Assembly: GCA_910577955.1 (NCBI GenBank)
Contig: CAJTNC010000016.1
Location: 6,995 to 70,994 of the forward strand
Length of the DNA: 64,000 nt
Direction: 5' to 3'
DNA from: an uncultured Lachnospiraceae bacterium
GTDB lineage: Bacteria; Bacillota; Clostridia; Lachnospirales; Lachnospiraceae
Below the pieces are notes generated by a model. It was given only the letters and a program-made list of their open reading frames with translations. It searched no databases and had not been told where the DNA came from. The position numbers were made by a program, and so were the translations under genes. This document shows, in pieces, positions 5,852 to 24,458 of this stretch. How positions within the stretch are numbered: the stretch's first letter is position 1; each line of letters begins with the position of its first letter.

Positions 5852-5885
5852 TCTGACATTTTAAGTGGAAGGAATTACGAAAAAT

Positions 5886-8066: not shown

Positions 8067-8131
8067 GTTATATGTACGGATTTGATAGGAAGGGAATATA
8101 AGTGCTTGGTACATAACATTAAATTAAATGA

Positions 8132-8853: not shown

Positions 8854-8935
8854 AAGTTTTTTGAAGGGCATTGATGTACTTTTAAAATACTTTCGATATA
8901 GTTTTGCCGGTATGTAATAGGTGTAAAATATTTTC

Positions 8936-8964
8936 TTGCCAAATTCTCTTTCCTCTGTTATACT
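8936..8964 (+). promoter_or_regulatory. Candidate sigma-A promoter (TTGCCA-17-TGtTATACT) upstream of the Rpn gene
   Basis: -35 TTGCCA at 8936-8941, a 17-nt spacer, extended -10 TG at 8956-8957, and -10 TATACT at 8959-8964. Confidence 0.4.
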
Positions 8965-9194
8965 ATTTTTAAAAGCATATATTCTATTGAAATTTCTGCA
9001 GCGCAGCCTGCATTCTTTGGGAACATTCCCGTCTTATTTCGATTGAAGTCAGTGCTTTTTATTTCAACATTAATTTAAATTGCATGGGATTTCATAAGAC
9101 GGAGGAATTCATTTTCAAAGACAAAGCTGCGGGATGACCGGTTTTAGGCAAAAAAGCTTCTTTCTCCTTCGGGGAATCTCGGAAGGAGGAAGGA

Positions 9195-10163
9195 ATGAGT
9201 AAAAGAAGCAGAAAAAGTTCCGCTGTGAAGGAGGCTAAAAGAAGACAGGAGGCAAAAGCAAATCTTCATTATAAAGATACGGTATTCCGTATGCTGTTCC
9301 GGGAGAAAAAGCGTCTGTTAGGGCTGTATAACGCGGTCAGTGGACGAAATTATGGTAATCCGGAAAAGCTGGATATCGTGACGTTAGAGAGCGCAGTGTA
9401 TCTGGGGATGAAAAACGATTTGGCGTTCATCATCGATATGAGACTGTACCTGTTTGAACATCAGTCAACCATGAACCCAAACATGCCTCTGAGATTTCTG
9501 CAGTATGTATCGGCGGAGTATGAGAAACTGATCATATCGAAAGACCTGCATAAGCAGGGGCAGGTAAAGATTCCCACGCCTCATTTCGTCGTGTTTTTTA
9601 ACGGGACAGAAAAGTGCGCGGAACGGCAGGAACTGCGGCTTTCGACTGCATATGAGGTGGCGGAGGAAGATCCGGAACTGGAACTGAGGGTGCAGGTCTT
9701 AAATATCAACGAGGGTTTTAATGAGGGGTTGAAAGAGGCGTGCCTGACGCTTAAAGAGTATATGCAGTATGTGGGTAAGGTTCGGACATATGCAGAGGAC
9801 ATCTCTGTAGACGAGGCTGTGGACAGAGCTGTGGATGAATGTATCGAGCAGGGGATTTTAAGAGAATTCCTGCTGCAGAACAAAGCGGAGGTAAGGCGCA
9901 TGAGTATTTTTGAGTATAATGAAGAAGCTGTGCGGCAGGCGCTTCGGGAAGAGGCCCGCGAGGAAGGATATGAAAAGGGAAGAGATCGAGGAAAGATAGA
10001 AGGAAAGATAGAAGATATCTTGTATTTACTGAAAGAAAAGGGGCCGGTTCCTGCGGAACTGGAGAAACAGATCAAGGAACAAAACGACGAAAATATTTTA
10101 CGGAAATGGCTAAAGCTTGCCGGCAGTGTGGGGAGCATCGAGGAATTCCGGATGGGAATATAA
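9195..10163 (+). CDS. Rpn-family recombination-promoting nuclease / putative transposase (PD-(D/E)XK, YhgA-like)
   Basis: N-terminus 'HYKDTVFRMLFREKKRLLGLYNAVSG...LDIVTLE...NDLAFIIDMRLYLFEHQST.NPNMPLRFLQY' matches the characteristic Rpn/YhgA-like core. The C-terminal part is a charged helical tail. Confidence 0.75.
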   Translation: MSKRSRKSSAVKEAKRRQEAKANLHYKDTVFRMLFREKKRLLGLYNAVSGRNYGNPEKLDIVTLESAVYLGMKNDLAFIIDMRLYLFEHQSTMNPNMPLRFLQYVSAEYEKLIISKDLHKQGQVKIPTPHFVVFFNGTEKCAERQELRLSTAYEVAEEDPELELRVQVLNINEGFNEGLKEACLTLKEYMQYVGKVRTYAEDISVDEAVDRAVDECIEQGILREFLLQNKAEVRRMSIFEYNEEAVRQALREEAREEGYEKGRDRGKIEGKIEDILYLLKEKGPVPAELEKQIKEQNDENILRKWLKLAGSVGSIEEFRMGI

Positions 10164-10519
10164 AAAATCAAGAAGAACAATTTGTATAATATATAGACTC
10201 AGGGGAATTTGCTTATGCAGTTAGCAATAAAATAGCAAAAATTGCCGCCAATAATAGCATTGATTCTGATATATGTTGTCTCTCAGTGGCTTCTTTGTGT
10301 TATATCAGGTCAATGGTGGGATGACTGGGAGATGTGGCTTTATTTGGAGGAATATGCCGCTCCAATAGATTGTTTCTAATAAAAGAAAATGTTCCGGTTT
10401 ATTCGGGGTGGGAGAAAATTAAAATTTTCATTTCATTTAATAAACGGTTGGTGTAAAATAGGTTATAAAGGATATCGTATTTTTTATTCTATTTACGAAA
10501 GCGAAAGATTGGAATATCA

Positions 10520-11041
10520 ATGGAGAATTTATTTGAATATAATATTATAATTATTTTTATAATATTTGTATTTATATTTATTTTAATTATTTCCATATAT
10601 TATTTAATTTTAAATCCGAAGAAAAAAAGGGTAAATAAAATAATTGAAAAATTCAAAAAGGAAGATTATATGCTTCCTCCTTACGCAGCTGAACGTTATG
10701 TTGTTTGGAATAATATGAGAAGCTTTTTCTACTTTTTGCATTATATGCTTACTTTATTAAGCGTATATGCTGGGCTAATGACGGTATATTATGCGTCAAG
10801 CGCAAATGATAAAAGTAATTGTATTATATTTTTGGCTTTATTATCAATGTGTTTTACAATTACAGGTATATTTTCTAATCCGCTTAGAACGGCTACAATG
10901 TCGCAACATGTATGGAGAGAATTGGATAGTTGCATAATTGCAATAATAAGCAATAAGCGCTGGTCAAAAGAAGAAAAGGACATGATACTAGCATATAAAA
11001 TAGCTCAATTGGAAAAGTATATTGAAACATATGAACGCTAA
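10520..11041 (+). CDS. Small hypothetical membrane protein (3 predicted TM helices plus a C-terminal helix)
   Basis: 173 aa. It has an extremely hydrophobic N-terminus 'IIIIFIIFVFIFILIISIYYLIL' and two further TM segments. Very AT-rich. It sits 67 nt upstream of the AbiH-like gene on the same strand. Confidence 0.45.
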   Translation: MENLFEYNIIIIFIIFVFIFILIISIYYLILNPKKKRVNKIIEKFKKEDYMLPPYAAERYVVWNNMRSFFYFLHYMLTLLSVYAGLMTVYYASSANDKSNCIIFLALLSMCFTITGIFSNPLRTATMSQHVWRELDSCIIAIISNKRWSKEEKDMILAYKIAQLEKYIETYER

Positions 11042-11120
11042 CTTTACAGAAGAAGGAGAAGAATCGTTTACATAGGCAGAACAGCGAGGCAGCCGGAGTT
11101 TCCGGCGGGTGGTAAAGAGT

Positions 11121-12527
11121 ATGCTATTTGATAAAGAATTGTTTGCATCAAAATATGTGGAATCTGATAAGCGAACGAATGTAGATACATTGATTCTTAT
11201 CGGAAACGGCTTTGATATCTGGCAGGGGCTGGATACAAGTTATGCATCTTTTGAAAAGTATTATGAAGCGCATCTGGATGAAGTGCTTACCCGTTTTCAT
11301 CTTAAGAAAAGAACACTTTTGGATAAAAATGGAAACATTATGTCAGATTGCACAGGCACTCCTGTTGTCTGTTCGGATGTTGAATTGTTTTATGGCGATC
11401 CGTTTCATCCGCAAAAGCTGCCACACGAGTTTTGGCGGGATTTTGAAACCGCTATGGATAAGGTGGATGATCAGGAAATAAATTATTTCTTTGGGCGCGA
11501 GGGAATTAAAGAGATTCAAAGGTGTGCAGATAACGCTCAGAGAATATTGAAAGAACTGTTCCGGGAATGGGTAATGTCAATTGATATCAGTGAGGAGATA
11601 CCGGAATATGAATTTGGCGATAATGTACTTTTTGTTAATTTTAATTATACCGATACACTGTTAAAACGTTTTGGCGTCAGGGAGATTAATGAATTTCACA
11701 TCCATGGCTCTGCGGATCAAAAAGAGTCTATTATTGTCGGACATGCAACACATCCGGAACTGCCATATGAGCCATTAAAAAACTTTAAGGATAAGCCGCG
11801 GTTTCAGGGGTTGTATTATATAGAGGAGTTTCTCTATAAAGCGGACAAGCATGTGGAAGATAACTATATGAAGCTGCAGGTATTTTGTGCGCTGCATGGA
11901 GCAAGGATCGAGGAGATAAAAAAGATATATGTGCTTGGACTGGGATTTGGAAATGCAGATTTAAGTTACATAAAACATTTTATCCATGAAACGCAGGGAA
12001 TAACAGAAAATCCGGAAGACAGTCTGTCTGGTGAAGAACTGTTTTATCTGAACTCTATGGATTATATGGGAATGATGAACCTGAACATGCACTATGCCAT
12101 TAGCCATCGGGAGCGGGTAATGAAAAAGGATCCGATCAGCTTTCCGGAATATGAACGTTTGGAGGACTTAATTGGCCCGTATGTGGAAGATCCGTATCAC
12201 CATATGGAACGGGACAGCCAAATGCGGCTGGAAGCGGCGGCAATCCGCCGGAGATTTTTGTCGGAACAGGAAGAGCGGAATAAAAAGATAAGGCGTGAAT
12301 ATTTGAGAATGCTGAACAAGAATCTGCATGTTGGATATACAGATCCGTCGGAGTTGTTCGTGAGACGGCGCGATAATGTTAAAAGACAGTCTGGTGCGGA
12401 ATGGCATATTTCATATTACAGTGATAAAGACTATAAAAGAATTGATGCGGTTATGAAAAATTATGGCTGCAATGATTATACGCTGCATGCTTCCATAAAT
12501 GAGTGCATAAACATATTTGCGAAATGA
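11121..12527 (+). CDS. AbiH-family abortive-infection protein
   Basis: 'LILIGNGFDIWQGLDTSY', 'FVNFNYTDTL' and 'EFHIHGS' are AbiH (PF14253-type) signatures. The start is ambiguous between GTG 11109 and ATG 11121. Confidence 0.7.
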   Translation: MLFDKELFASKYVESDKRTNVDTLILIGNGFDIWQGLDTSYASFEKYYEAHLDEVLTRFHLKKRTLLDKNGNIMSDCTGTPVVCSDVELFYGDPFHPQKLPHEFWRDFETAMDKVDDQEINYFFGREGIKEIQRCADNAQRILKELFREWVMSIDISEEIPEYEFGDNVLFVNFNYTDTLLKRFGVREINEFHIHGSADQKESIIVGHATHPELPYEPLKNFKDKPRFQGLYYIEEFLYKADKHVEDNYMKLQVFCALHGARIEEIKKIYVLGLGFGNADLSYIKHFIHETQGITENPEDSLSGEELFYLNSMDYMGMMNLNMHYAISHRERVMKKDPISFPEYERLEDLIGPYVEDPYHHMERDSQMRLEAAAIRRRFLSEQEERNKKIRREYLRMLNKNLHVGYTDPSELFVRRRDNVKRQSGAEWHISYYSDKDYKRIDAVMKNYGCNDYTLHASINECINIFAK

Positions 12528-12546
12528 CAGGCGGGGGGGAAACAAT

Positions 12547-13677
12547 ATGCAATTTCGTGATTTACAAAAACAGTATCAAATATTAAAACCCGATATGGAT
12601 ATAGCAATCGGTAAAGTGCTTGCAGACGGGAATTTTATTTCCGGCAGACAGGTGGCGGAATTGGAGGATCAGCTTGCAGCTTACGTGGGGGTGAAGCACT
12701 GTATTGCCTGCGGCAACGGCACAGATGCGCTGACATTGGCGCTGATGGTGTGGGATATCGGCTCGGGGGATGCCGTGTTTGTACCGGATTTTACATTTTT
12801 TGCATCCGGTGAGACACCGGCTTACGAGGGAGCAACGCCTGTATTTGTGGATGTGGAGGAGGATACTTTCAATATGTCTCCGACATCTTTGGAAGAGGCG
12901 GTATTAAAGATAAAAGAAGAAGGGAAACTGAGGCCGCGTGTGATTGTGGCAGTGGATCTTTTCGGACAGCCTGCGGATTATACGAGGATCCGTCAGATTG
13001 CGGAAAAGTATGACCTCTTGATTTTGGAGGACGGAGCGCAGGGCTTTGGCGGGCAGATCGGAGAACAGAGGGCCTGCAGTTTTGGCGATATTTCCACAAC
13101 TTCCTTTTTTCCGGCAAAGCCGCTTGGGTGCTATGGAGACGGCGGAGCGGTATTTACAGATCGTGACGAATGGGCAGAGCTGCTTCGTTCTTACCGCGTT
13201 CATGGAAAAGGGACGGACAAATATGATAATGTCCGGATTGGCATGAATTCCAGATTGGATACGCTGCAGGCAGCAGTCCTGCAGGTGAAATTGAAAGCAT
13301 TTGAAGAAAATGAACTGACGGCGGTCAACAGGGCTGCTGACTTCTATACGAAAAAACTGGGAACGATCGTGAAAACGCCGGAGGTCGGAGAAAACTTTTT
13401 CTCCAGCTGGGCACAGTATTCCATCCTTTTGAGAGACGAGGCGGAGCGCGACGGGCTTCAGGCTCATCTGAAAGGGAAAGGAATTCCCACGATGGTGTAC
13501 TATCCGAAACCGATGAGCAGACAGGGGGCATTTCAGGGCATTGATTGCGTGAAAACAGATTTGTCCGTTACTGCTGATTTGTGCACAAGAGTGCTGGCGC
13601 TGCCGATGCATCCGTATATAACGGAGGAAGAGCAGAATCAGGTGGTCGGGGAGATCAAGGCGTATATTTGTCAGTAA
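12547..13677 (+). CDS. DegT/DnrJ/EryC1/StrS-family PLP-dependent sugar aminotransferase (WbpE/PglE-like)
   Basis: 'FISGRQVAELEDQLAAYVGVKHCIACGNGTDAL', and 'SFFPAKPLGCYGDGG' containing the PLP lysine. The ATG at 12547 is preferred over the extended ORF at 12517. Confidence 0.85.
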   Translation: MQFRDLQKQYQILKPDMDIAIGKVLADGNFISGRQVAELEDQLAAYVGVKHCIACGNGTDALTLALMVWDIGSGDAVFVPDFTFFASGETPAYEGATPVFVDVEEDTFNMSPTSLEEAVLKIKEEGKLRPRVIVAVDLFGQPADYTRIRQIAEKYDLLILEDGAQGFGGQIGEQRACSFGDISTTSFFPAKPLGCYGDGGAVFTDRDEWAELLRSYRVHGKGTDKYDNVRIGMNSRLDTLQAAVLQVKLKAFEENELTAVNRAADFYTKKLGTIVKTPEVGENFFSSWAQYSILLRDEAERDGLQAHLKGKGIPTMVYYPKPMSRQGAFQGIDCVKTDLSVTADLCTRVLALPMHPYITEEEQNQVVGEIKAYICQ

Positions 13678-13708
13678 ATGAATAGAAAATAAATAGAAAT
13701 TGGTGAAA

Positions 13709-13755
13709 GTCCCGGGGTATTATAATGCAGAGCGCTGATATCCCGGGATTTTTGT
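13709..13755 (+). terminator. Rho-independent terminator after the aminotransferase gene
   Basis: Hairpin CCCGGGGTAT...ATATCCCGGG (13711-13747) is followed by ATTTTTGT. Confidence 0.6.
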
Positions 13756-13782
13756 ATTAATGTAACAATTTTCATAATATAA

Positions 13783-13811
13783 TTGCGCTTTTTTTGATTA
13801 ATGTTTATAAT
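13783..13811 (+). promoter_or_regulatory. Candidate promoter for the giant-ORF operon (TTGCGC-17-TATAAT)
   Basis: -35 TTGCGC at 13783-13788, a 17-nt spacer, and a perfect -10 TATAAT at 13806-13811. It lies downstream of the terminator and about 108 nt upstream of ATG 13919. Confidence 0.3.
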
Positions 13812-13918
13812 TTAATATGAAGAAGATATTTCTGTGTAGGAATCGCAAATTCAGATAACCTGAGCAGGATGCAGTGATTATGTGATATAGGAGAGATACT
13901 AAAGAGGGGGCAGTAAAG

Positions 13919-16900
13919 ATGGAGAAAAAGACAGTTGTTTTTATGCTGGAATACCTCCGAACAGGCGGATGGGGGGCGATCAGCGATTTTATCACTAAAT
14001 TTTCTGAAAGAATCCCCATGAATCGATCGGATACAGCTATTGCCTCTTCCTGTCTCTTTAAGGAATTTAAATCAGGCAGTAATTTTGATCTGGCTAAGTT
14101 AATTATAAAGAAAAGAGAAAAGTTTAAAAAGATCGAGAGACCGGAAAAAATATACGACGCAGGAGAAGAATACTATTATGTTTTCTTTATATCTGTACAG
14201 TATGAGCGTCTGGAGGACGTTGTGGATTTACAGAGTCTGTATTTGCTGATTGATGCGTGTGATACGGTCAAAGCCATTGCGCTCATAGAGGGAATACAAA
14301 AAGAATATCATAAGACATCGCACTTTTTTTCTTTTCTGACAGAACGCAAAGGTGGTATCTATGAAAGCATTTTTTTCAAATCTGATGATATCAAGCACTT
14401 ACAGAGGGCGGGAATAGGCACTTTATCAAGATTCCTGCCACTAATTCCTGTGAATAGATCCACAGAAAAACTTTTTCGGCAGAATGTCAGTGAGATAATA
14501 ACACAGGAACAGATAGTTCGGTGTCTCGAGGGATCAAAGGGAGAGGGAAAAAATACAGGTATTTGGGCAGGGGCATTAAAAAAACTCACTGAAAACCGTG
14601 GAAGATTGAAACAATGTGATTTGCAGCAGTGTGCTGCATATATGGGAAATGTTGAGACATTATCCTTTTTGTTGTTTTGCTTTTTTTTGGACGGAATCAA
14701 AGAAGATTTTTGGGATTTTGGGGGATTTAGCAGAGAATTTCAAAAAATCTCAATTTGGACAAACGGCTGTATCCAACTGATAGAAAATATTATTTTTCAC
14801 TCGGCTAATCAGAAAGGCGCTTTTTCTTTTCGGTTGTTGGAGAGTAATAATGTTTATCTGAAAAGTAAATATGGGATAGGGGACGATGAGAAAATCTGGC
14901 TTGAGTTGATGGTAACGGACTATCCGGGGCGTAGTCATACACGAAATATCGCGCAGAATTTTTGCGAGAATCTGGCAGAGGACAATATACGAAGTTGTTT
15001 TAAAGGCTTATCTCCGGAGGATTTTTTTGCGGAGGGAAATAAAGCGGAGATAGATGAAGCATGGAGGAAGTATTATCTGGACAAAGGAAATATGGTTAAT
15101 CATTATGGGCTGCGAATATTTCATAAAGCAGTGATTAAGAGCAACGGATATTTCATCATGCAGAGCCATTCCACGCATATCCCCAGAGAAGGGGAAAGAT
15201 TTTGTATGAGTCGGGATATTCGTGAAGAGAAAAATAAAATTTGTATGCCCGGGACAGGCTATTCTGTTTTGTTCCCTATAGTGCGGGAAGGAATTAAGAG
15301 GGAGTACATTGACTACGGGATTGAGAATTATGAAGGAAGGTTAAAGGATGACGATCAGTTTTTTGACTATGAGGTCATTCCCAAAAGGTTGTCGATTGCA
15401 GGCGATATTTCATCGGCTAAAACGAAACGAAAAACAATAAATGATCTGGCAAAGGAAATAGGAGACAACGAAAACAGCAAGAGTATTGTTTGTATTAATT
15501 GCGAAAATTTTCCGGGAAATCATGGAGAGATCGTGTACAAAGCTGTTAATCTTGCAATGCTCAAATATGAGAAGAATTTTCATGTTGTGCTGTATGGATG
15601 CCATTCGGAATTTGTGCAGGTGTTCCTGACGGCCGCATATTTGGGGTGGCAGAATCTGAAAGAGGAGTCGACCTATAATGGAAAAAAGCAGATTGCACTC
15701 TACACTGCAGGGCAGTATGAGGAAATACGCATTTTACCGGAGAACTGGTATGCAACATTAGAATTGAATCGAAAGAATAATTTTTCCAGAGAAACAAGGT
15801 GGGCAGACTACTTTGAAAAGTGGGACAGTGGAACAGCCCAAGAACGGGCTAAGACATATGTGGCGAATTATCCTTTTGACGTAGTGGCAACAGATGAACA
15901 GGGAAATACAATATTTGAAAAGTATGTGGAAACTGTTATAGAACGGAATATTCAGAGTGAAAAGCTTGGGTGCAAAATAGAGAATGTCCATATGCGCTTA
16001 GGATCCACCATTCACGTAAATCATTTTTACGAGGCCGAAATTTTATTCGGAAATTTTTATTTTGTGGAACGGTTTGCTATGTTGATGATCAAAAGCATGT
16101 GCAGGTCTGAAGAAAAGCCGCCGATTCAGAGTACTGACAAAGTGACGTTGTATGGATATAGCAATTATTCGGAGCAGACGGTGTACTGTACGATGCAGTT
16201 TCTGCGCAGGATGCTGCCGGGAATAGACGTTGACTATGCTATATTGGAGCGGGAAGCTGAGGAAAGGGGTTTTACACATGTGGATCGAATCAGGTACAGT
16301 ACTTATTTTGAAGAGGATGGGATAAAAAGGCGGAAAGAACATTTCCGATCCAGAAAAATAGTCTGTATCATTCCAATTGCCAGCACGCTAAAGACGAATG
16401 AGAAGATGATCAATTTATTTGCAGAAGAAAACGGGAAGGAAACCAGAGATGCGTTTTGGCATAATTTTGAGTTGATTTTAGTCGGATCAGCAGAAGATAA
16501 TGAATATTGGGAAAAAGAGGGGAAGCATATATCCGGAAAGAAAGGAATGGAAATATCTCCTGAACCGGAATTTTTTGTGGAGGTTGCATTGACATATATG
16601 GAACCGCTGAAATGTAATATGTGTTTTCCCGAGTGTATCATAGATGAGCAGCCGTTGGTGGAGGTAAATGCGGCCTCTACGATCCCCAATCAGGCTTTTG
16701 GGCTGATTGAGGAAAAATGCGGACTTCCTGCTATTACCAGAGACCAGATATTGCAGGAAGAAGAGAAGATGGAAATATTAAAGGATATTTTGATATATCG
16801 ACACATAGAAAAGAATGAGAACCATTTTCTTTTTTATTTTCAGTCTGAGAGACTGCTTATCAGGTATTCGGAAAAAATCAGGGATTGGCTTAAAGGAATA

Positions 16901-19900
16901 GGAGGGGAAATAAAGAAAAGCATAGCTCGTGAAGACTATGTGGTTCTGTTTTGTCCGGCTCATTTCAGCAATGCCGGATTTGTCGAATGCGTAAATAACT
17001 ATGTTTTCGGGAGTGCGGCAGTAGTCATACGGGACGATGTGGATAAAGAGTACAGATGCAATTTCAAAACGAAATTTTCAAATATGAGAAAGTTTGTAGA
17101 AAAAATTGCAAAGTATCAGTCAGATAACGGTGAGCGACAGAGGAGAATACATTTTTTCTATGTAGACGAAACGATTGTGACAGGGAACACTTTTCAAAGG
17201 GCGAAAAGTCTGGTGCAATCGGTCATAGGGGATTATGTGCTGTCGGAAAGGCAGAAATATGTGGTTTTTGAAGGGATTTTTGTCTTAATCGACCGAAATT
17301 CCAGATCCAGCAGATGGCAGTATACAGGACTGGGAGAGGAAGAACGCCTCTATGCATTCAGGACAATCCATATCTCTTCTGTCAGAAATCATGGTGATGC
17401 CTGTGTCTACTGTAATCTGGCAAAAGAGGCGGAGACATTGAAACGGAGTTCCGTGACAAAGACAATGGAAAAATACTGGGAATCTGAGGAAGAAAAGTTT
17501 TCTGTGAAGCCTCTGGTCAGATATCTGAGATATGGGGAAGAAAGCGGCGGGCAGCAGGAGGATGTAAAGAAAAAGCAGGAGGATGTAGAGAAAAAGAAAA
17601 AACGCGCGTTTCGGCGGCTGTGCTGTACGAATAATGCCATGGTATTTTTGAAAGATGAATACCATGGGAATCAGAAAGAGGTGGTGCTGGAGCAGCTCCT
17701 GACTTTGATATTGGAGGGGAGCGCCATACATGCAGGGGAAGAGGCGGAGTACTTTCTGTCTTATTGCAAAGTGCTCAGCAGACCTTTCCGGGTATTTGAC
17801 AAGGGCGTGAAGGAGGCGGTTTTTGATTTTCTGTTAGTGGCCTGCCAGAGCGCTCTGGCAGAAGAGCCTTATGGGGATATCATTAAAAGCAGTGTGAAGA
17901 AGCCATATTTAAGGAAAGAAAATATTAAGTTAAAGTTGTTGGATGTAGAAAGGTTTGTCCAAGATTATTTTCGGACTGGGGACATGTGGCAGGATCTGCT
18001 CAAGGTGCTGCTAAAACAGTTGACAGAGATGAAGAGCAATTTTATTCTCAGAGAAACCAATATGAGACAGATTCTGGAATACGCGAATGGATTAAATGAG
18101 GGGAATAAAATTAAGTTTCTCCAGTATTATAAATGCCTGACAAAAAGACTGACCGGAATCAGCTCGGATACCAGCAAGTGCCTGTGGCTGGATAATATGC
18201 TCAGAGACAGACCGGAACTTTTGAAACAGGCTGTCCCGCAGGATATTTATCTGGAAAATGTTTGGATCTATCAGGATGCTTTCCAAAAGTTGAATGGAAG
18301 GATAAGGGCTGCGGGATGGGCAGAAATTTTGGAGAGCAGTTCGGGCGATATTTCGGAAGAAAATCTGGCACGGTTTGAAAGGGAGGAGCTGGAAGAGCAC
18401 ATAACGCCATATCAATTTAAAGATTTTATTAAACTGCTGGAACTGTATGGTTTGAGAGAGGAAACGGCGGGATTTTGTGAAGAGGGGCGGGTCTTTGTGG
18501 CAGCAAATTATCTGCTGTACAAGTTTATATCGCAGGAATTTACCAAGTCACCGAAAAAAGCGGATCCTGCAAAGCAGGGGAATTTGGATAAGGTCGATCA
18601 TATTGCAGCGTGCATTAAACATATTATAAAGGCAAAGGATGTTGTCATTATGATGGAGTTTAATGCGGAATACGATCTATGGGAAAGCAAGCTTATTGAG
18701 CGTTACAATGCGCTGATGACGGAACCTCAAGGAAAAATAAAACATGATTTAAAAAAAGAGTATCTTGTTCTTGGAAGCAGCGGAGGGAGGAGCAAGGAAT
18801 GGACTATCAAAGAGAGTGAGGCCATCAGTTTGGTACAGAAAGTTCAGAATAAAAAGGGCTTGACAGAGAAAGAGTACTCATTTAGTCTAAAAGAAGGTAC
18901 GTTTCTTTGGGAAGTGGGCCATACTACGGAATATCCGGTATATATCTTTGCAAGATGGGAAGGCTCTGAACAGGGCAGTATGGCAGAGATAGACAGGCTG
19001 AACCGTATCCGAAGCGTTCTGCAGTATTGCTGGATGCTAAATGATTCTGTTTTTAATAAGGGAAATGAGGTCTTTTTCTATGAGATCGCACGTCAGCGGA
19101 AGCAGAATGCAATACAGAGCATGCAGAAAGCATATACGCATACAAAAAGCGATATCAGGATGGAACAGTACAATCATATGCTGAATAAAAAAAAGTATAA
19201 CGGGTATTTTCAGTCGGAACTGCTGATGCTGTTAGCAGATTTGAATGTGAGCGAGCATTACAGAAAAAGTCTGACAATGGATTATTACTTGGAAGGGATT
19301 CCGATGCGTCCTGAAAGATGGAATTCAGAGCTGTCGCTTTTCAAAGACATGAACAGTTTTTATATCTTAAACAGTGATGATGAAAAAGCTACAGAACTGA
19401 AGGTATCTAAGGAAGTGCTGTTTGAAGGAGATATTCCGCTGCAGGGAGATGAGGAAGTTATCGCGCTTGACTACACTAATGCGGAACGAGAGACGTTCCT
19501 GCTGATATATTCCTTGATGGTCAATGCGGTGACGGATGGCCGGGGCTTCATGGAAAATAATTGTGTGACGGTTTATTGCACCAAAACTGCCGGAGGACGG
19601 CTGCGGCTGGCGAACCGTATCGGGGCGGGGGCCGGAGTTCGTACGCCTGAACAGATTATGGAAGGGCTGAGATATCCTCCGGAGGAGGAAGGTCAGGGGA
19701 TTTCACTGTGGAGTATGTCTCGCTACATCAAACGAATGATAGCAAATTACCTGAATACGGATATAAAAAAACTGGAAAGATCGGCAGGGGATGTTGATCC
19801 TGCTTCTCTGATATTGCTGGGGAATAAGATCAAGAAAATGATGGGAGAGGAATTCCGGATAGATATCCGAAAGGAAAAGGTTGGGGATAAAGAATATTTT

Positions 19901-19942
19901 TCTGTATTGCTGCCCGTTTTTGCAGAAAAATATTATGAGTGA
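13919..19942 (+). CDS. Giant (2007 aa) cytoplasmic multidomain protein: N-terminal HATPase_c-like module, two PRTase-like modules, C-terminal histidine-kinase-like transmitter; function unknown
   Basis: Uninterrupted 6-kb ORF with an AGAGGGGG SD. Module 1 has 'ENIIFHSAN', 'VTDYPG', 'NHYGLRIF' and 'GTGYSVLFPI'. The PRTase-like PRPP loop is 'IHFFYVDETIVTGNT' followed by 'FVLIDRN'; a degenerate copy is 'IVCIIPIASTLKT'. The C-terminal module has 'MVNAVTDG', 'NRIGAGAG', 'GQGISLWSM' and 'YFSVLLPV'. No TM segment or signal peptide. Confidence 0.85.
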   Translation: MEKKTVVFMLEYLRTGGWGAISDFITKFSERIPMNRSDTAIASSCLFKEFKSGSNFDLAKLIIKKREKFKKIERPEKIYDAGEEYYYVFFISVQYERLEDVVDLQSLYLLIDACDTVKAIALIEGIQKEYHKTSHFFSFLTERKGGIYESIFFKSDDIKHLQRAGIGTLSRFLPLIPVNRSTEKLFRQNVSEIITQEQIVRCLEGSKGEGKNTGIWAGALKKLTENRGRLKQCDLQQCAAYMGNVETLSFLLFCFFLDGIKEDFWDFGGFSREFQKISIWTNGCIQLIENIIFHSANQKGAFSFRLLESNNVYLKSKYGIGDDEKIWLELMVTDYPGRSHTRNIAQNFCENLAEDNIRSCFKGLSPEDFFAEGNKAEIDEAWRKYYLDKGNMVNHYGLRIFHKAVIKSNGYFIMQSHSTHIPREGERFCMSRDIREEKNKICMPGTGYSVLFPIVREGIKREYIDYGIENYEGRLKDDDQFFDYEVIPKRLSIAGDISSAKTKRKTINDLAKEIGDNENSKSIVCINCENFPGNHGEIVYKAVNLAMLKYEKNFHVVLYGCHSEFVQVFLTAAYLGWQNLKEESTYNGKKQIALYTAGQYEEIRILPENWYATLELNRKNNFSRETRWADYFEKWDSGTAQERAKTYVANYPFDVVATDEQGNTIFEKYVETVIERNIQSEKLGCKIENVHMRLGSTIHVNHFYEAEILFGNFYFVERFAMLMIKSMCRSEEKPPIQSTDKVTLYGYSNYSEQTVYCTMQFLRRMLPGIDVDYAILEREAEERGFTHVDRIRYSTYFEEDGIKRRKEHFRSRKIVCIIPIASTLKTNEKMINLFAEENGKETRDAFWHNFELILVGSAEDNEYWEKEGKHISGKKGMEISPEPEFFVEVALTYMEPLKCNMCFPECIIDEQPLVEVNAASTIPNQAFGLIEEKCGLPAITRDQILQEEEKMEILKDILIYRHIEKNENHFLFYFQSERLLIRYSEKIRDWLKGIGGEIKKSIAREDYVVLFCPAHFSNAGFVECVNNYVFGSAAVVIRDDVDKEYRCNFKTKFSNMRKFVEKIAKYQSDNGERQRRIHFFYVDETIVTGNTFQRAKSLVQSVIGDYVLSERQKYVVFEGIFVLIDRNSRSSRWQYTGLGEEERLYAFRTIHISSVRNHGDACVYCNLAKEAETLKRSSVTKTMEKYWESEEEKFSVKPLVRYLRYGEESGGQQEDVKKKQEDVEKKKKRAFRRLCCTNNAMVFLKDEYHGNQKEVVLEQLLTLILEGSAIHAGEEAEYFLSYCKVLSRPFRVFDKGVKEAVFDFLLVACQSALAEEPYGDIIKSSVKKPYLRKENIKLKLLDVERFVQDYFRTGDMWQDLLKVLLKQLTEMKSNFILRETNMRQILEYANGLNEGNKIKFLQYYKCLTKRLTGISSDTSKCLWLDNMLRDRPELLKQAVPQDIYLENVWIYQDAFQKLNGRIRAAGWAEILESSSGDISEENLARFEREELEEHITPYQFKDFIKLLELYGLREETAGFCEEGRVFVAANYLLYKFISQEFTKSPKKADPAKQGNLDKVDHIAACIKHIIKAKDVVIMMEFNAEYDLWESKLIERYNALMTEPQGKIKHDLKKEYLVLGSSGGRSKEWTIKESEAISLVQKVQNKKGLTEKEYSFSLKEGTFLWEVGHTTEYPVYIFARWEGSEQGSMAEIDRLNRIRSVLQYCWMLNDSVFNKGNEVFFYEIARQRKQNAIQSMQKAYTHTKSDIRMEQYNHMLNKKKYNGYFQSELLMLLADLNVSEHYRKSLTMDYYLEGIPMRPERWNSELSLFKDMNSFYILNSDDEKATELKVSKEVLFEGDIPLQGDEEVIALDYTNAERETFLLIYSLMVNAVTDGRGFMENNCVTVYCTKTAGGRLRLANRIGAGAGVRTPEQIMEGLRYPPEEEGQGISLWSMSRYIKRMIANYLNTDIKKLERSAGDVDPASLILLGNKIKKMMGEEFRIDIRKEKVGDKEYFSVLLPVFAEKYYE

Positions 19943-19959
19943 TGGTGAGGAGGTTTTAC

Positions 19960-20448
19960 ATGAAAAGAATTGTGATAGTTGAAGACAGACCGTGGAAAAT
20001 GCGGAGTTGCATTAAGGAACTGCAGAGCAAGGGGATAACCTTCTATAAGACAATATACTATCGCAACAATTCATTAGATACGAAGACACAGGAAGAATTG
20101 CTGAATCAGTATATTGAGGATACAGGCATGGAAATCGAGAGGGTGAACAGTCAGGAAGAATTTGTGAGCAAAATGGATGATGCGTATCAAGTTTCCGATA
20201 CTATTTTTCTGATGGATTATGATCTGAAAGGAGATATGAACAGGGAAGACTTTTTTACGAGAGTCAATGTGAGGTATGCGCTTGCAAGGGACAAAGAACG
20301 GATATGGTTCTATACGACAGGGCCAAGCGATATCAAGGGAATACTGTTGGATACTTTTCCCGACCATGTAATCAGCGTAAAGGTTACGGACAATATGCAG
20401 GGATTCTGGGATGAGGAACAGATAAGGGCTGCCGTTCAGACCGGTTAA
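19960..20448 (+). CDS. Stand-alone receiver (CheY-like REC) domain protein
   Basis: 'RIVIVEDRP' is a beta1 strand with an acidic pair. 'TIFLMDYDLKGD' holds the candidate phospho-Asp D86, 'IWFYTTGP' holds T119/T120, and 'VISVK' holds K141. The D-T-K spacing (33/22) mirrors CheY D57-T87-K109. GGTGAGGAGG SD lies 6 nt before the ATG, 17 nt after the giant ORF stop. Confidence 0.6.
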   Translation: MKRIVIVEDRPWKMRSCIKELQSKGITFYKTIYYRNNSLDTKTQEELLNQYIEDTGMEIERVNSQEEFVSKMDDAYQVSDTIFLMDYDLKGDMNREDFFTRVNVRYALARDKERIWFYTTGPSDIKGILLDTFPDHVISVKVTDNMQGFWDEEQIRAAVQTG

Positions 20449-20466: not shown

Positions 20467-21558
20467 ATGGATATTTTGTACTATTATACAACGGCAGAGA
20501 CAATGAAATATATTCTGACGCAGGGAGATATATTTGCCACGCATATCAGTTATCTGAACGATTCGGAAGAGTATGTGAATGGTTTGCGGGAACTCAGAGA
20601 GGTGTTTTCAGGAGAGAGTCTGAGAGAACTGTGCGGCACAGGAATAAAAGAATATCTGGAAGGGGAAGCTTATGAAGACGCGCTGAAAGATATTCCGCAG
20701 ATTTATTCTATCTCTTTTTCAAAAGAAGCAGATTTGTTGAGCCAGTGGTATATGTATGCGAGGGAATCCGGTGTCCGTCTGGGGATGCTGTTTTCCGGAG
20801 AAAAGCAGAACTTTAAAATAAAGCAGAAGGATGCAAAAGGGTTGAAAGCTCCGGATGATAAGATGAGGGAGGCAGAGGCATCCTTAAAGGATGTACATTA
20901 TTTTACCCGGATAGGTATGTCGTTGGAGGAATATACTGAAGCAACGGAATCTATTGCGCAGATTGTGAAAGAATATGCGGAAGAGCTTGGAGTAGATGAT
21001 TTTGACGCGAATGCTGTCCGACTTTGGAAAGGGATCGCGCCTTACATAAAAAATTATGAATTTCGGCAGGAAAGAGAAGTAAGGCTTGTATTTGATGCCG
21101 TTATTCGGGGGGCAAGCAGTTCCTATGTGGATCTGATAGAATACCGGAATGGGAACGGAGTTCTGATTCCTTATCTGGATGTATACCGTGAAAAGGGCTG
21201 GCCCGTTGTAGAGATTATGGTAGGTCCGGGCAGAAATCAGGACAGGGTGTTCCGCAGCATCTGTCATTTTGTGGACAATAATAGTTTAAAGATTCCGGAA
21301 ATAGACCAGAAGGAGAGCGTGAGGCGCTTCATGGGGGGTATGTCCTCCTATCAGGTAGAACAGAATCAGATTGAGGCATATTGCGGAGAAATTGATAAGA
21401 GCGTTGCAGAGGGAGGAAAAATTATAACCCATAAAAGTGCGGCGTATGAAATCTTAAAAAAGAAAACAGGCCGCGAACGGGAATATTTGGAAAGAAATTA
21501 TTATTCTAATTGCGGAATCATTGTGAGAAAGTCTAATGCGCCGTATGTTTTTTCCTAA
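20467..21558 (+). CDS. DUF2971-like protein (unknown function)
   Basis: 'ILYYYTTAETMKYILTQGDIFATHISYLNDSEE', 'IYSISFSKEADLLSQWYMYA' and 'IKNYEFRQEREVRLV' match the three conserved blocks I associate with DUF2971. AGGAG SD lies 7 nt upstream, 18 nt after the REC gene. Confidence 0.6.
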   Translation: MDILYYYTTAETMKYILTQGDIFATHISYLNDSEEYVNGLRELREVFSGESLRELCGTGIKEYLEGEAYEDALKDIPQIYSISFSKEADLLSQWYMYARESGVRLGMLFSGEKQNFKIKQKDAKGLKAPDDKMREAEASLKDVHYFTRIGMSLEEYTEATESIAQIVKEYAEELGVDDFDANAVRLWKGIAPYIKNYEFRQEREVRLVFDAVIRGASSSYVDLIEYRNGNGVLIPYLDVYREKGWPVVEIMVGPGRNQDRVFRSICHFVDNNSLKIPEIDQKESVRRFMGGMSSYQVEQNQIEAYCGEIDKSVAEGGKIITHKSAAYEILKKKTGREREYLERNYYSNCGIIVRKSNAPYVFS

Positions 21559-21567: not shown

Positions 21568-23352
21568 CTAGCTCACCTTGTAAACATAAATATGATACCA
21601 GCTATCCTCGGTTTCAAAAGGGGCTTCCCGCAAAAGGGACAGTCCCTTTTTTTCTGCATCCATCAGGTATGCGGCGGAAAAAACATACTGACAGTTCAAT
21701 TCTTTTAACACTTCCGTATTCAGATCAAGGTCATAGATCACACTGTTCCATTTTTTTTCAAATGTATAGTAGTTTGCCTGTTCGGCGGTAGTAATATAGC
21801 AGCGGTTTCCCCACGAATCAAAGAATGTTTGGACGTAGTCGTTTTTTTGAAGTTCCCCCTCGATGATCCGGCGGAACGTGTGCTTGTATTCCAACGGATA
21901 ATTGTTGGAGTAACCGTCCAGACAATAAAATCCGTTGTAGGCCGCGGCAGCAGGATAAATGCCGATACTGACAACGCGGTACTCCTCTTTCGGCTTTCCG
22001 ATGGCTTCTTCGATCTGGCTGAAAATATCCTCCGAGAAAAAATTATTCCAGTCTAAAGCGTAGTAATTGCCGCCTTTTAACAGCTTGGCAAGATTAGGGT
22101 AGAGGGCGCTGTGAAACAGTACCGTTAAGCACCAGAAGCCGAGCGATGCAAAAACTACAGCCTGTCCGAACAGGCGCTTTATAGGCGCATCGTCAAATAA
22201 TTCAACAACAAATGAAAGCAGATACGCGGCCAGAACACACCATGCAGCCGGCAGCAGCCAGTTCACCCGGCTAAGGTTGAAAGTCTTTAAAAGTCCGTCT
22301 GAGGCGTTTCGAAGTCCGGTCATGAAAGTTCCATGATAAAAACAGGAAAACAGACATATCATAATAATAGCCAGCAGAGTTATGGAAGCTTTAAAAAGCA
22401 GTGCGTTAGAGGAGGCGGGCATTTTCAAAGCGGAAGGTATTCCGTTTTTTCGGACCCTCAAGGTGCATTGGATGAGAGGAATCAGCAGGCACAGGCCGAT
22501 CAGGAATAAAAGCACGATGTGGTAACTTTGTGCGTAATCGGCGCCTTTTCCAAAGAGAGCCTTAAAATGGGAGAACGGCTCTACGGGAGAAAGAACAAGT
22601 TCGGTTTTGTGGCTGATATATGTGCTGCGGGGAATAAGGACTTGTTTTGCCAGTTCCAGATTGCAAAGGATATAGGTAAGCAGTAAAACTAAGGTGGAAA
22701 GCCACGGTGAAAGAGGGATTCTGCGTTTAGAGCGCAGCGCCTGAATGCTCTGAAAAACTGCAAAGATTCCCAGAACAAGCAGGCAGGCGAATCCCACCAA
22801 CACAGGGGAGGAGGAAGCGCCGTAAAAGAGGATCAGCAAATAGTAAAAGAGTTTTCGCTTATTTTCATGCAGCGACAGTACCGCGTAAAACAGCAGCGGC
22901 TGACCGGGAATACAGAGCCCGTACACAGGGTAAAAGGGCAACAGCATAAAAATAACGGAAATGCTGAAGGAGATAAATTCCCGCCCTGTAAGTTTAGACA
23001 AAAGCAGGTACATTCCGACAAAAGCCACAAGGTACACAAGCCATTGTGACAGCATAAAAGCGCAAAAAGGCTCAAAAAAGACGTAAAGCAGGACGAGAAG
23101 CGGAGCGGGCGGAACGGCGCCTGCCGCCGGAAGCCCGTTCATGATTTCGGGGTAAACGCGGACATCCGTAAACAGATATCTGGCTGCCAGTATATAATTT
23201 AACAGTTCTCCGTCCAGTTGGTCATGATAGGTGACGATACTGCCTGTGCCCAACAGTATATATGGCATCATAAGACAGACTGACAGTAAGAGTCCCGCAC
23301 AAAGATATAAGGTTTTTTTGTGCGTATGGTAAAAAGTAAATAATGTTTTCAT
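21568..23352 (-). CDS. Polytopic membrane protein with a C-terminal extracytoplasmic domain (DUF6044/YfhO-like glycopolymer-associated; tentative)
   Basis: 594 aa with about 12 TM helices, then a soluble ~170-aa C-terminus. It is one of three supported minus-strand genes in the window. Its stop is 9 nt from the stop of the DUF2971 gene. Confidence 0.65.
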   Translation of the reverse strand: MKTLFTFYHTHKKTLYLCAGLLLSVCLMMPYILLGTGSIVTYHDQLDGELLNYILAARYLFTDVRVYPEIMNGLPAAGAVPPAPLLVLLYVFFEPFCAFMLSQWLVYLVAFVGMYLLLSKLTGREFISFSISVIFMLLPFYPVYGLCIPGQPLLFYAVLSLHENKRKLFYYLLILFYGASSSPVLVGFACLLVLGIFAVFQSIQALRSKRRIPLSPWLSTLVLLLTYILCNLELAKQVLIPRSTYISHKTELVLSPVEPFSHFKALFGKGADYAQSYHIVLLFLIGLCLLIPLIQCTLRVRKNGIPSALKMPASSNALLFKASITLLAIIMICLFSCFYHGTFMTGLRNASDGLLKTFNLSRVNWLLPAAWCVLAAYLLSFVVELFDDAPIKRLFGQAVVFASLGFWCLTVLFHSALYPNLAKLLKGGNYYALDWNNFFSEDIFSQIEEAIGKPKEEYRVVSIGIYPAAAAYNGFYCLDGYSNNYPLEYKHTFRRIIEGELQKNDYVQTFFDSWGNRCYITTAEQANYYTFEKKWNSVIYDLDLNTEVLKELNCQYVFSAAYLMDAEKKGLSLLREAPFETEDSWYHIYVYKVS

Positions 23353-23458
23353 AAAAATATAATAATAAGGAAAGGGCAGTCTGTCAACTCCCCCTTGCCC
23401 ATTCAGTCGGCCTGTGATAAAATTAGAAAATGTAAAAAAATAGGAAATGAGGACAATT

Positions 23459-24457
23459 ATGTTAAACGATAAAACAATTTTGATTACCGGAGGAACAGGA
23501 ACTTTTGGAAATGCTTTTGTGCGTTATGTGCTGGAGCATTATGAGCCCAAAAAACTGATTATTTATTCCAGAGATGAATTTAAGCAGTTTCTGATGCAGA
23601 ATGAGTTGAGACAATATAAGGACAAGCTGCGCTTTTTTATCGGCGATGTGCGCGACAGAGAGAGGCTTAACAGAGCTTTTGACGGCGTGGACTATGTGAT
23701 CCATGCGGCGGCGATGAAGCAGGTGCCGGCCTGTGAGTACAATCCCGATGAGGCTATCAAGACCAACATTCAGGGAGCGCAGAATGTGACGGCGGCGGCT
23801 TTGGATGCGGGGGTAAAAAAAGTTGTGGCGCTCTCCACCGACAAGGCGGTCAATCCCGTCAATCTGTACGGCGGCACGAAACTGGTGTCCGATAAGCTGT
23901 TCATTGCGGCGAACGCATATGCCGGAAAGAAAGAGACCTGCTTTTCTATTGTCCGCTATGGAAATGTGGCGGGCAGCAGGGGATCTGTCATTCCGTTTTT
24001 CAGAAATATTATCGAACAGGGAGGGAAGGAACTGCCGATCACAGATTACCGCATGACTCGCTTCTGGATCAGCATCACGCAGGGCGTGGAACTGGTGATC
24101 AAAGCGTTGGAGGAATCACGGGGCGGCGAGACATTTATCTCCAGAATTCCTTCCTTTAAGATCACCGATCTGGCGCAGGCGATGCTGCCGGGCTGCGAGA
24201 TGCCGGAGGTGGGTATTCGTGAGGGAGAAAAATTGCATGAGATCATGGTGACGGAGGAAGATGCGCCGACCACCTATGAGTATGATAAGCATTTTATCAT
24301 CTTTCCGCAGATGATCTGGAACAGCAGGCAGAAGCCCAATCCTGACGGTCTCGGAAAGAAGGTGCCGGATAGATTTTCCTATAGTTCCGGCAACAATGCA
24401 CAGTGGATGTCGGTGGAAGAGATCAGAGAGAGGCTGGCGCATCTGGAGGAGCACTGA
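23459..24457 (+). CDS. pseB: UDP-N-acetylglucosamine 4,6-dehydratase (inverting), PseB/FlaA1-type
   Basis: 'MLNDKTILITGGTGTFGNAF', 'YSRDEFKQ', 'GDVRD' and 'YGGTKLVSDKLF' (YxxxK). About 332 aa. GAGGA lies 5 nt before ATG 23459. Confidence 0.8.
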   Translation: MLNDKTILITGGTGTFGNAFVRYVLEHYEPKKLIIYSRDEFKQFLMQNELRQYKDKLRFFIGDVRDRERLNRAFDGVDYVIHAAAMKQVPACEYNPDEAIKTNIQGAQNVTAAALDAGVKKVVALSTDKAVNPVNLYGGTKLVSDKLFIAANAYAGKKETCFSIVRYGNVAGSRGSVIPFFRNIIEQGGKELPITDYRMTRFWISITQGVELVIKALEESRGGETFISRIPSFKITDLAQAMLPGCEMPEVGIREGEKLHEIMVTEEDAPTTYEYDKHFIIFPQMIWNSRQKPNPDGLGKKVPDRFSYSSGNNAQWMSVEEIRERLAHLEEH

Positions 24458-24458
24458 T

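Follow-up and report, generated by a model that had tools for sequence, protein, structure and literature searches.

The stretch of DNA that was analysed (the window; 64,000 nucleotides, positions 6,995 to 70,994 of contig CAJTNC010000016.1, assembly GCA_910577955.1) comes from an uncultured Lachnospiraceae bacterium and carries at 13919–19942 a giant open reading frame (ORF) of 2007 amino acids. As judged from the ORF list and its translations, this ORF is the first gene of a conserved three-gene cassette in which it is followed by genes for a receiver (REC)-like protein (partner A, 169 amino acids; 19939–20448) and for a protein of the DUF2971 family with a predicted ADP-ribosyltransferase (ART) fold (partner B, 363 amino acids; 20467–21558). 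All features of the cassette are encoded on the + strand, and coordinates are those of the window. Within the giant gene, nucleotides 16121–17422 encode two successive domains with the phosphoribosyltransferase (PRT) fold, of which the first is degenerate and the second retains a site of the type that binds phosphoribosyl pyrophosphate (PRPP). A preliminary description of this DNA had pointed to a PRPP-binding loop in a module flanked by Cys clusters and to a degenerate copy upstream of it. All six peptides that it quoted lie where it placed them and in the frame of 13919–19942 (+), and its numbering of the acidic pair (D1083/E1084) is correct.

The giant protein and its sub-regions yielded no match in Pfam (E ≤ 10), PDB sequences (E ≤ 10), NCBIfam (E ≤ 1), or PADLOC (E ≤ 0.1). 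Likewise, PDB sequences returned nothing when searched by phmmer with the whole protein or with profiles made from the full-length, core, or C-terminal alignments. When 15 relatives were compared one by one with Pfam at E ≤ 10, no match to any family, Pribosyltran and ComF included, was obtained, and 20 further relatives searched at E ≤ 0.01 matched Metallophos alone, in the long forms. Metallophos was the sole family at E ≤ 0.01 among all 35 relatives scanned singly, again in long forms. Because no family model matches, the PRT reading cannot rest on such models. Sequence models do not place the protein in the Pribosyltran or ComF families, as neither the whole protein, nor its sub-regions, nor the 15 relatives matched Pribosyltran (PF00156), PRTase_2, or PRTase-CE at E ≤ 10.

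The fold was instead evaluated with two AlphaFold models, of which model 1 spans residues 660–1200 (predicted local distance difference test score, pLDDT, of 78) and model 2 spans residues 230–915 and leaves out module 2 (pLDDT 84, predicted template modeling score 0.79). The pLDDT of module 1 itself is approximately 90. By using Foldseek to search the PDB with model 1, we obtained type I PRTases for all of the top 50 matches (E values from 5e-5, probability 1.00), including HGPRT, OPRT (2ps1_A, template modeling score [TM] 0.58), XPRT, PyrR, and a ppGpp-binding PRT-like protein. Model 2 likewise had only PRTases among its top 50 matches; the targets were those found with model 1, at nearly identical percentages of identity, and a phage or viral PyrE was matched at 3.4e-5 in the viral library BFVD. 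Note that the Foldseek output was obtained without query ranges, and the matched domain was assigned by overlap logic. The two models share only residues 660–915, with a Rossmann-like domain (residues 460–660) present solely in model 2 and module 2 present solely in model 1. Because both models match PRTases only and their overlap is limited to residues 660–915, the matched domain is module 1. In the economical reading of these predicted structures, module 1 (residues 735–905; 16121–16633) is a true PRT-fold domain, and it is better backed by structure than module 2. It is also through module 1 that structure comparison groups the giant protein, at the level of fold, with the type I PRTase superfamily, which is characterized by a five-stranded parallel alpha/beta core. 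The fold that the preliminary description postulated is thus present in both models, and what it called a degenerate copy corresponds to a real PRT-fold domain.

Residue conservation was measured mainly in a local alignment of 180 sequences, mostly representatives of 50%-identity clusters, to which the percentages given below refer; a smaller set comprised 29 aligned homologues. In module 1, conservation and hhalign identify the segment KIVCIIPIASTLKTNEK (residues 813–829; 16355–16405) as the positional equivalent of a PRPP loop. The peptide KIVCIIPIASTLKT with which it begins (residue 813; nucleotides 16355–16396) lies 264 amino acids upstream of the intact loop, and hhalign sets the two loops in register. 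The acidic pair of a PRPP loop is replaced in module 1 by V/I-P819 (I-P in the giant protein), and a remnant of the phosphate loop, S822-T823-L-x-T826, is kept. The residues of this module 1 loop are strongly conserved (P819, 96%; S/T822, 99%; T823, 97%; T826, 100%; K/R829, 99%). Profile comparisons of module 1 with PRTases gave no sequence signal (hhalign P values of 0.065–0.75, with 0.53 for ComF/GntX), and its comparison with module 2 did not reach significance (P = 0.24 for 12 sequences and 0.043 for 180). The two modules nevertheless align collinearly, each loop and each CxxC falling on its counterpart. The predicted structures suggest a tandem duplication, which remains unproven by sequence.

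Module 2 (residues 1000–1168; 16916–17422) was delineated by secondary structure, motif, and hhalign. Its PRPP-type loop, IHFFYVDETIVTGNT (residues 1077–1091; 17147–17191), contains in FFYVDETIVTGNT the hydrophobic strand, the two acidic residues, and the T/S-G-x-T/S turn that characterize PRPP loops. A relaxed pattern for such loops, [LIVMFYWCA]x4-D-[DE]-x-[LIVM]-x-[ST]-G-x-[ST], occurs only once in the six-frame translation of the window, at this very site, and was found in 2 of 20,000 shuffles of the giant protein. The loop is also highly conserved: D1083 is present in 100% of the sequences, an acidic residue (D/E) at position 1084 in 81%, T/S1088 in 88%, G1089 in 96%, T/S1091 in 86%, and R1094 in 98%. 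Two further elements appear to complete the pocket. The end of strand 4, L-I-D-R1126-N-S1128 (17285–17302), which overlaps the peptide GIFVLIDRN (residue 1119; 17273–17299), includes R1126 (100%) and S1128 (98%). Between strands 2 and 3, downstream of the strand peptide YVVLFCPAHF (residue 1007; 16937–16966), lies the basic segment D-V-D-K1043-E-Y-R1046-x-N1048-x-x-x-K1052-x-S1054 (17036–17080). Among the 29 homologues, conservation at K1043, E1044, Y1045, R1046, N1048, K1052, and S1054 is complete or no lower than 90%, and the larger set gives 92% for R1046 and K1052 and 88% for S1054. By position, we infer that this segment is an analogue of the flexible loop with which PRTases bind pyrophosphate.

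The predicted secondary structure of module 2 follows the beta-alpha-beta order of a PRT core and places the motif at a strand-to-helix junction. With reference sequences for PRTases, kinases, and receivers taken from Escherichia coli K-12, hhalign aligned module 2 in register with Apt (P = 4.9e-4), ComF/GntX (P = 9.7e-4), and PyrE (P = 4.9e-3), compared with control values of 0.19 for REC and 0.68 for histidine kinases. The GntX value was obtained with an alignment of 106 sequences of low diversity, corresponds to a probability of 22%, and includes the 'P-L-H' loop of strand 1 in register. These data indicate that module 2 retains what appears from its sequence to be a complete and strongly conserved PRPP-type pocket, comprising the acidic pair, the T-G-x-T turn, the basic segment, R1094, and R1126.

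A CxxC pair follows each module. The first, C899-N-M-C902 (16613–16624), comes right after the last strand of module 1 and is 98% conserved; the second, C1162-V-Y-C1165 (17402–17413), comes right after the last strand of module 2 and is 100% conserved. The two occupy equivalent positions in the alignment of module 1 with module 2. In the peptide CNMCFPEC (residue 899; 16613–16636), the third Cys (C906) is not conserved. The giant protein contains three CxxC motifs (C525, C899, and C1162) where 0.72 would be expected by chance, and the remaining one, C525-I-N-C528 (15491–15502), is located in the alpha/beta domain between the N-terminal ATPase-like region described below and the PRT tandem. A single putative Zn(Cys)4 site made from the two conserved pairs is plausible. 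Conservation of the motif residues among homologues had been set beforehand as a check on the PRTase proposal, and both these residues and the two Cys pairs proved to be conserved across the family.

Other potential metal ligands lie close by. Module 1 is preceded by a conserved beta segment rich in Gly, Cys, and His (residues 660–734; 15896–16120) with G684, C685, H691, G695, S696, and H699 (G684 and H699, 100%; H691, 99%), which is possibly a metal site or a 'hood' for module 1. The linker between the modules (residues 906–999; 16634–16915) contains the conserved sequence PLVEVNAASTIPNQAFG and a Y960-x-H962...N968-H969 hairpin (P923, 97%; H962, 100%; H969, 97%), with pLDDT values that are low in places. 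The invariant Cys and His residues around module 1, G684-C685, H691, and H699 (15968–16015) together with Y960-x-H962...H969 (16796–16825), might bind a further metal ion among themselves or act as the actual partners of one CxxC pair.

Comparison with type I PRTases (HGPRT, OPRT/PyrE, XPRT, APRT, and PyrR; PF00156) reveals both shared and distinctive features. What the giant protein shares with them is the alpha/beta fold (TM up to 0.58 at a Foldseek probability of 1.00). Its module 2 also has a hydrophobic strand followed by an acidic pair and a T-G-x-T loop, located as in these enzymes where strand passes into helix, and can be aligned in register with Apt, PyrE, and ComF. In contrast to these enzymes, its modules are unseen by sequence models and are arranged in tandem in one chain, with the first lacking the acidic pair. 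In addition, a CxxC follows each copy, the pair sits at approximately residues 735–1168 of a 2007-residue protein, and R1094, R1126, and S1128 are invariants of its own. ComFC/GntX is a competence PRT-like protein with a zinc finger that binds ssDNA (PMC9005727), and it resembles the giant protein in combining a PRT-like domain with metal-binding motifs of the Cys4 type, which are putative in the giant protein. The role of ComFC is nonmetabolic and lies in nucleic acid handling. The preliminary description had compared the Cys pairs with those of ComF, a comparison that does not extend to their layout. In ComF, the Cys motifs lie ahead of the only PRT domain (PF18912 plus PF00156, with the GntX CxxC motifs at residues 8–55), whereas the giant protein has one CxxC behind each of its two modules, lacks the N-terminal Cys4 arrangement, and has no competence genes nearby.

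The tandem core defines, as judged by profile searches, a family of at least 1,107 clusters. A first search yielded 42 close homologues, nearly all of approximately 2000 amino acids, whose named members come from Lachnospiraceae-type gut bacteria and are without exception labeled 'hypothetical'. When a profile of residues 660–1200 was compared with 1.84 billion representatives, 1,107 clusters passed E ≤ 1e-3, and 885 of these also passed E ≤ 1e-30. Almost all of the matched proteins have 2000–2600 amino acids, with the core at approximately residues 700–1300. The most distant relatives share residues 280–1190 with the giant protein but not its C-terminus, and hence the core consists of the PRT tandem plus the region upstream of it. 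A species-level scan located the family in 40 genomes, the majority from Lachnospiraceae and the others from Oscillospiraceae, Christensenellaceae, Stoquefichus, Gastranaerophilales, Bacteroidales, and Cytophagaceae, so that the distribution over these 40 species in several phyla is patchy. Plasmid and phage records searched by megablast and tblastn gave no match to the family.

In some genomes the giant gene is split (loci L017, 7955–14074; L025, 8006–14262; L045, 637–7885; L048, 7421–15140, in the coordinates of each locus). The core and the C-terminal phosphoesterase are separate neighboring ORFs in L045 and L048, and the kinase-like tail forms one or two ORFs of its own in L017 and L025. 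These splits represent either natural domain fission or frameshifts and pseudogenes.

Upstream of the PRT tandem, box motifs, Foldseek, and hhalign point to a region resembling histidine kinases and GHKL-type ATPases (residues 270–460; 14726–15298). Its motifs, which resemble the N, G1, G2, and G3 boxes and are invariant or nearly so, are Q286-L-I-E289-N290 (N-box like), D334, H395-Y-G397, G410, and G445-T446...P453. The order of secondary structure elements in model 2 is compatible with a Bergerat fold, several viral histidine kinases were matched by Foldseek in BFVD (E values of 1.3e-3 to 5e-2), and comparison with five E. coli kinases by hhalign placed all four boxes in register (P = 0.02; controls, 0.2–0.6). 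These observations lend weak support to a GHKL-type ATPase at residues 270–460. Gln286 is invariant and is located four residues before Asn290 (14774–14788), where MutL/GyrB-type GHKL ATPases carry the catalytic Glu.

A conserved helical middle region (residues 1170–1460; 17426–18298), recognizable by the invariant columns R1233, S1281, R1288, S1373, D1417, and E1446-N1447, forms the end of the part that is common to distant relatives. Beyond it, the C-terminal module is variable and, in the subfamily of the giant protein, histidine kinase like (residues 1725–2007; 19091–19939), as we infer from an alignment of 26 loci and from hhalign. Throughout these 26 loci, the module contains an invariant H1741 ('KAyTHTK'), an N-box 'LMVNAV', and the motifs 'LRLAN1899', 'GISLW', and 'YFSVLLPVF'. 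It aligns in register with the E. coli kinases (P = 0.013) and with the N-terminal domain of the giant protein itself (P = 0.007), and control values over both kinase-like regions were 0.07–0.65. Neither of the kinase-like parts has a sequence match in Pfam or the PDB. The kinase references are those of E. coli K-12, since the homologue loci, when scanned by motif, proved to contain no canonical histidine kinase. The preliminary description had also called the giant protein kinase like; such regions, including GHKL-type ones, are indeed present, although the support for them is weak. Asn1899 (19613–19615) stands in place of the adenine- or ATP-binding Asp of the kinase G1 box. Either kinase-like domain may bind nucleotide without turnover or may bind another ligand.

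Elsewhere in the family, the C-terminus is of another kind. All 20 of the long relatives scanned end in a calcineurin-type phosphoesterase (Metallophos), and giants with this fused phosphoesterase have neither partner gene, so that they and the two-partner type are mutually exclusive. The output at the C-terminus is therefore interchangeable in the family, being either a fused phosphoesterase or a kinase-like tail with two co-transcribed partner genes downstream. In one distant relative (P0042, 2418 amino acids; 7161–14417 of locus L004), matches were obtained to the profile of the kinase-like C-terminus (6e-46) as well as to that of the phosphoesterase (4e-161), indicating that two output modules can coexist. 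A Band_7 protein is among its neighbors, in contrast to the pair of receiver-like and DUF2971 genes.

The trio of the giant gene, partner A, and partner B is present in 34 loci, including relatives that are only about 30% identical, and in all 34 of these two-partner loci a gene with the size and position of partner A follows the giant gene. In the window, the start of the partner A ORF overlaps the stop of the giant gene, and its probable start codon is the ATG at 19960 (162 amino acids). At least 27 of 29 diverse orthologues of partner A retain D16, D93, and T126, which is the pattern of a receiver domain, where acidic residues follow strand 1, the phospho-acceptor Asp follows strand 3, and a Thr or Ser follows strand 4. 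By hhalign, partner A aligns in register with five E. coli receivers (P = 4.6e-4; controls, 0.15–0.4), 8 of the 14 subthreshold matches in a PDB profile search are response regulators, and the Pfam model Response_reg gives only E = 0.088. On these sequence comparisons, partner A is a probable, but not proven, member of the REC domain family.

Partner A was also considered as a PRT-like protein, an assignment that we rejected in favor of the receiver-like one (hhalign P values of 0.15–0.4 with real PRTases). A few of its orthologues give weak matches to PRTase models (Pribosyltran, PRTase_2, and PRTase-CE), the best being 0.0012 with PRTase-CE. In three of them (L021, 14284–14814; L023, 6701–7258; L026, 11253–11801) the E values are 0.098–0.23 and the match covers only the N-terminal 'IVIVED'/'IVIVEDKL..G' strand. 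We judge these matches to be look-alikes in a strand motif, at which the two flavodoxin-like folds are similar. A literature search on 'PRTase-CE' found nothing.

PF11185 matches 24 of the 27 orthologues of partner B (best, 2.4e-7). The window copy scores E = 0.018 and 16.8 bits, which is below the 22-bit cut-off, and its assignment is aided by motifs: the invariant residues Y97, Y145, and E202-x-E204 agree with the Tyr (motif II) and ExE (motif III) motifs of DUF2971. A profile search of the PDB with partner B returned nothing. A DarT-like ADP-ribosyltransferase fold with Tyr and ExE motifs has been ascribed to DUF2971 (PMC12522546), and Aristaios, a single-gene DUF2971 system from lactococcal plasmids, is a validated antiphage system (PMC11381338). 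Partner B is likely the effector of the cassette.

The genes around the cassette are of several kinds. Two genes upstream lies an AbiH gene (11109–12527, +; Pfam, 1.4e-33), which gave the only PADLOC match (1.6e-14). The 3′ end of AbiH overlaps by 11 nucleotides the gene for a DegT-type aminotransferase (12517–13677, +), the only gene between it and the giant ORF. On both sides (14–8066 and 23447–25709), the window is a surface-glycan or nonulosonic acid-type biosynthesis locus with two CMP-sugar cytidylyltransferases, a polysialyltransferase/GT52-like protein, HMGL-like proteins, Polysacc_synt, and Polysacc_synt_2. In other loci, the cassette adjoins a FokI/Mrr-type nuclease, or an AAA_15/AAA_21 ATPase together with a PD-(D/E)XK protein. 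A census of 125 neighboring proteins from approximately 35 loci produced 150 families, none of which is a conserved neighbor. The most common were AAA_21 (5), AAA_14 (4), SMC_N (4), and sugar-nucleotide enzymes (3 each), followed by AbiH (2), through which a second AbiH neighbor was recognized outside the window, and the 25 most common families included neither reverse transcriptase nor DprA. The cassette thus occupies heterogeneous, variable neighborhoods, often with genes for abortive infection, restriction, OLD-type ATPases, or surface glycans.

We propose that the cassette is an uncharacterized conflict system, probably an antiphage system acting by abortive infection, in which the PRT pair serves as the ligand-binding switch and not as the effector; we assign this reading a probability of about 0.5. 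Because the PRT pair is constant while effector-type modules are swapped, a sensor or core role is indicated rather than that of an effector. This constancy argues for a sensor while leaving room for catalysis. The tandem would mimic, in one chain, the usual dimer of type I PRTases, with one half competent and the other a pseudo-enzyme, and the two CxxC half-sites may clasp these halves via zinc. Candidate ligands of the tandem are PRPP, a nucleotide or alarmone, and, as for ComFC, single-stranded nucleic acid. Upon binding, the tandem and the N-terminal GHKL-type ATPase would shift conformation and switch the output on. In the window, this output would be a His-to-Asp phosphotransfer from H1741 of the C-terminal kinase-like module to D93 of partner A, and the phosphorylated receiver-like partner would then license the DUF2971 ADP-ribosyltransferase toxin. 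As PyrR and the ppGpp-binding PRT-like protein 5vog, both among the structural matches, illustrate, the task of a PRT fold can be to sense a ligand and not to act as an enzyme.

The proposed logic resembles that of Detocs, in which a kinase (DtcA), a receiver that acts as a buffer (DtcB), and a receiver-effector (DtcC) cooperate (bioRxiv 10.1101/2023.01.24.525353). Both are three-gene arrangements in which a large kinase-like sensor would act through a small receiver-like protein on a toxic effector. Unlike Detocs, the cassette has no PADLOC or Pfam match to the Detocs components, its DUF2971 effector is devoid of a receiver domain, and its sensor is a giant of approximately 2000 amino acids with a PRT tandem and a putative phosphotransfer. 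Partner B belongs with Aristaios to the DUF2971 ART family and keeps the Tyr and ExE motifs; however, Aristaios acts alone as one gene, whereas the DUF2971 gene of the cassette is always third, after the giant and receiver-like genes.

Several points weigh against the proposed switch. The fold of module 2 rests on the motif, secondary structure, and moderate profile P values (probability 22–32%), and its conserved PRPP-type pocket would equally fit a real enzyme. The kinase-like assignments (P = 0.013–0.02, with no sequence match in Pfam or the PDB) and the receiver-like assignment of partner A (P = 4.6e-4) are weak, and the N- or C-terminal kinase-like domains could be inactive, given Gln286 and Asn1899. 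The zinc site is a conjecture, as C685, H691, H699, H962, and H969 could be the real partners of the CxxC pairs. None of the three cassette proteins matches a defense model of PADLOC-DB v2.0.0 at E ≤ 0.1, and in the literature and defense databases searched there is no paper or entry describing the giant-protein family and no annotated member. Finally, the recurrence of the cassette in glycan loci could indicate that it is connected with the cell surface and not with defense.

The main rival holds that module 2 is an active, ShosT-like effector (PMC12961424) that consumes PRPP, thereby depleting PRPP or nucleotides or making a toxic or signaling phosphoribosyl product, as is presumed for the PRTase toxins ShosT and PsyrT, while the other domains regulate it. 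We regard this as the less probable explanation, though one to be taken seriously. Conservation extends beyond the loop to the whole pocket, namely the acidic pair, T-G-x-T, R1046/K1052, R1094, and R1126. PRTase effectors are known in retron III, ShosTA, PsyrTA, and Ophion, and the toxicity of ShosT depends on PRPP binding through an equivalent Asp pair and basic residues (PMC12961424), with the Asp pair being essential. The second acidic residue, however, is missing in 19% of the relatives, no PRTase sequence model matches, and it is the PRT pair that stays constant while dedicated modules of the effector type, located C-terminally or encoded downstream, are exchanged (Metallophos or the DUF2971 ART). 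This pattern of an invariant core with an exchanged C-terminal output argues against the effector role with depletion chemistry that the preliminary description had implied, without excluding it.

ShosT, PsyrT, the PRTase of retron type III-A, and OpnC of Ophion do share with the giant protein the presence of a PRT domain in a conflict-type gene cluster. Unlike the giant protein, they are small effectors or toxins recognized by PF00156, whereas here the PRT pair is an invariant core and other domains are effector like. Their partners are DprA-like antitoxins, a reverse transcriptase plus noncoding RNA, or radical SAM/PHP enzymes, and none of these is found at the cassette. The preliminary description was therefore right that PRTase domains occur in retron-type defense, as in retron type III and likewise in ShosTA/PsyrTA and Ophion, but a retron link does not apply to this locus, where there is no retron, reverse transcriptase, or DprA-like partner nearby.

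A second rival, which we consider improbable, views the cassette as a device for cell-envelope or surface-glycan signaling, in which the PRT pair senses a sugar-phosphate or nucleotide-sugar precursor and a kinase-to-receiver relay passes on the signal. The window and three other loci (L001, L004, and L006) place the cassette in or near polysaccharide or teichoic-type genes, among them CTP_transf_like, C2185-like_N, glycosyltransferases, DegT, and epimerases, and this recurrence could reflect either an insertion hotspot or a functional link. Variable glycan loci are common insertion sites of mobile cassettes, and no glycan gene is a conserved neighbor among the 150 families of the census, other loci having nucleases, ABC or AAA ATPases, or unrelated genes. 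Moreover, the output takes the form of a toxin-type ART fold, of which an antiphage relative has been validated, or of a fused phosphoesterase, and the distribution is patchy and crosses phyla. That the PRPP motif is a chance look-alike in a protein without a PRT fold, as the absence of sequence matches in Pfam and the PDB (even at E ≤ 10) and in NCBIfam might suggest, is refuted by two structure models with PRTases alone as top fold matches, by a motif that is invariant over the 180 relatives and rare among shuffles, and by in-register profile matches to three real PRTases.

Until now, the PRTase domains known from phage defense have been small toxin effectors (retron III, ShosTA, PsyrTA, and Ophion). 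If the PRT pair is indeed the ligand-binding switch, it would be the first PRTase fold to serve as the sensory core, and not the effector, of a defense system. PRT folds in conflict systems are already known; the architecture seen here is new, and the role is probably new as well. The modular pattern, in which a constant core is combined with swappable outputs of the toxin type and the cassette is mobile and lies next to Abi and restriction genes, bears the signature of an immune system. More tentatively, and with less confidence than we place in the switch itself, the family could represent a widespread class of immune systems in which a pseudo-dimeric PRT sensor, with one live and one dead half and a zinc clasp, reads the state of PRPP, nucleotides, or ssDNA and is coupled to a GHKL ATPase and interchangeable outputs. 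The analysis also provides domain assignments for a large 'dark' protein family, ties DUF2971 ADP-ribosyltransferases to an upstream regulator, and defines a testable three-gene candidate with named residues.

Scans of the cassette for promoters and terminators gave results no better than those for shuffles, and its GC content is not distinctive. The 241 nucleotides that separate the DegT gene from the giant ORF contain a long inverted repeat (tcccgggg ... atcccggga) followed by a T-run (13709–13751), which the consensus scan missed because its loop exceeds 8 nucleotides. As a candidate terminator, this repeat would turn the cassette into a separate transcription unit. Directly after the cassette, a convergent gene (21568–23352, −) encodes a DUF6044 protein of 594 amino acids (Pfam, 1.4e-118).

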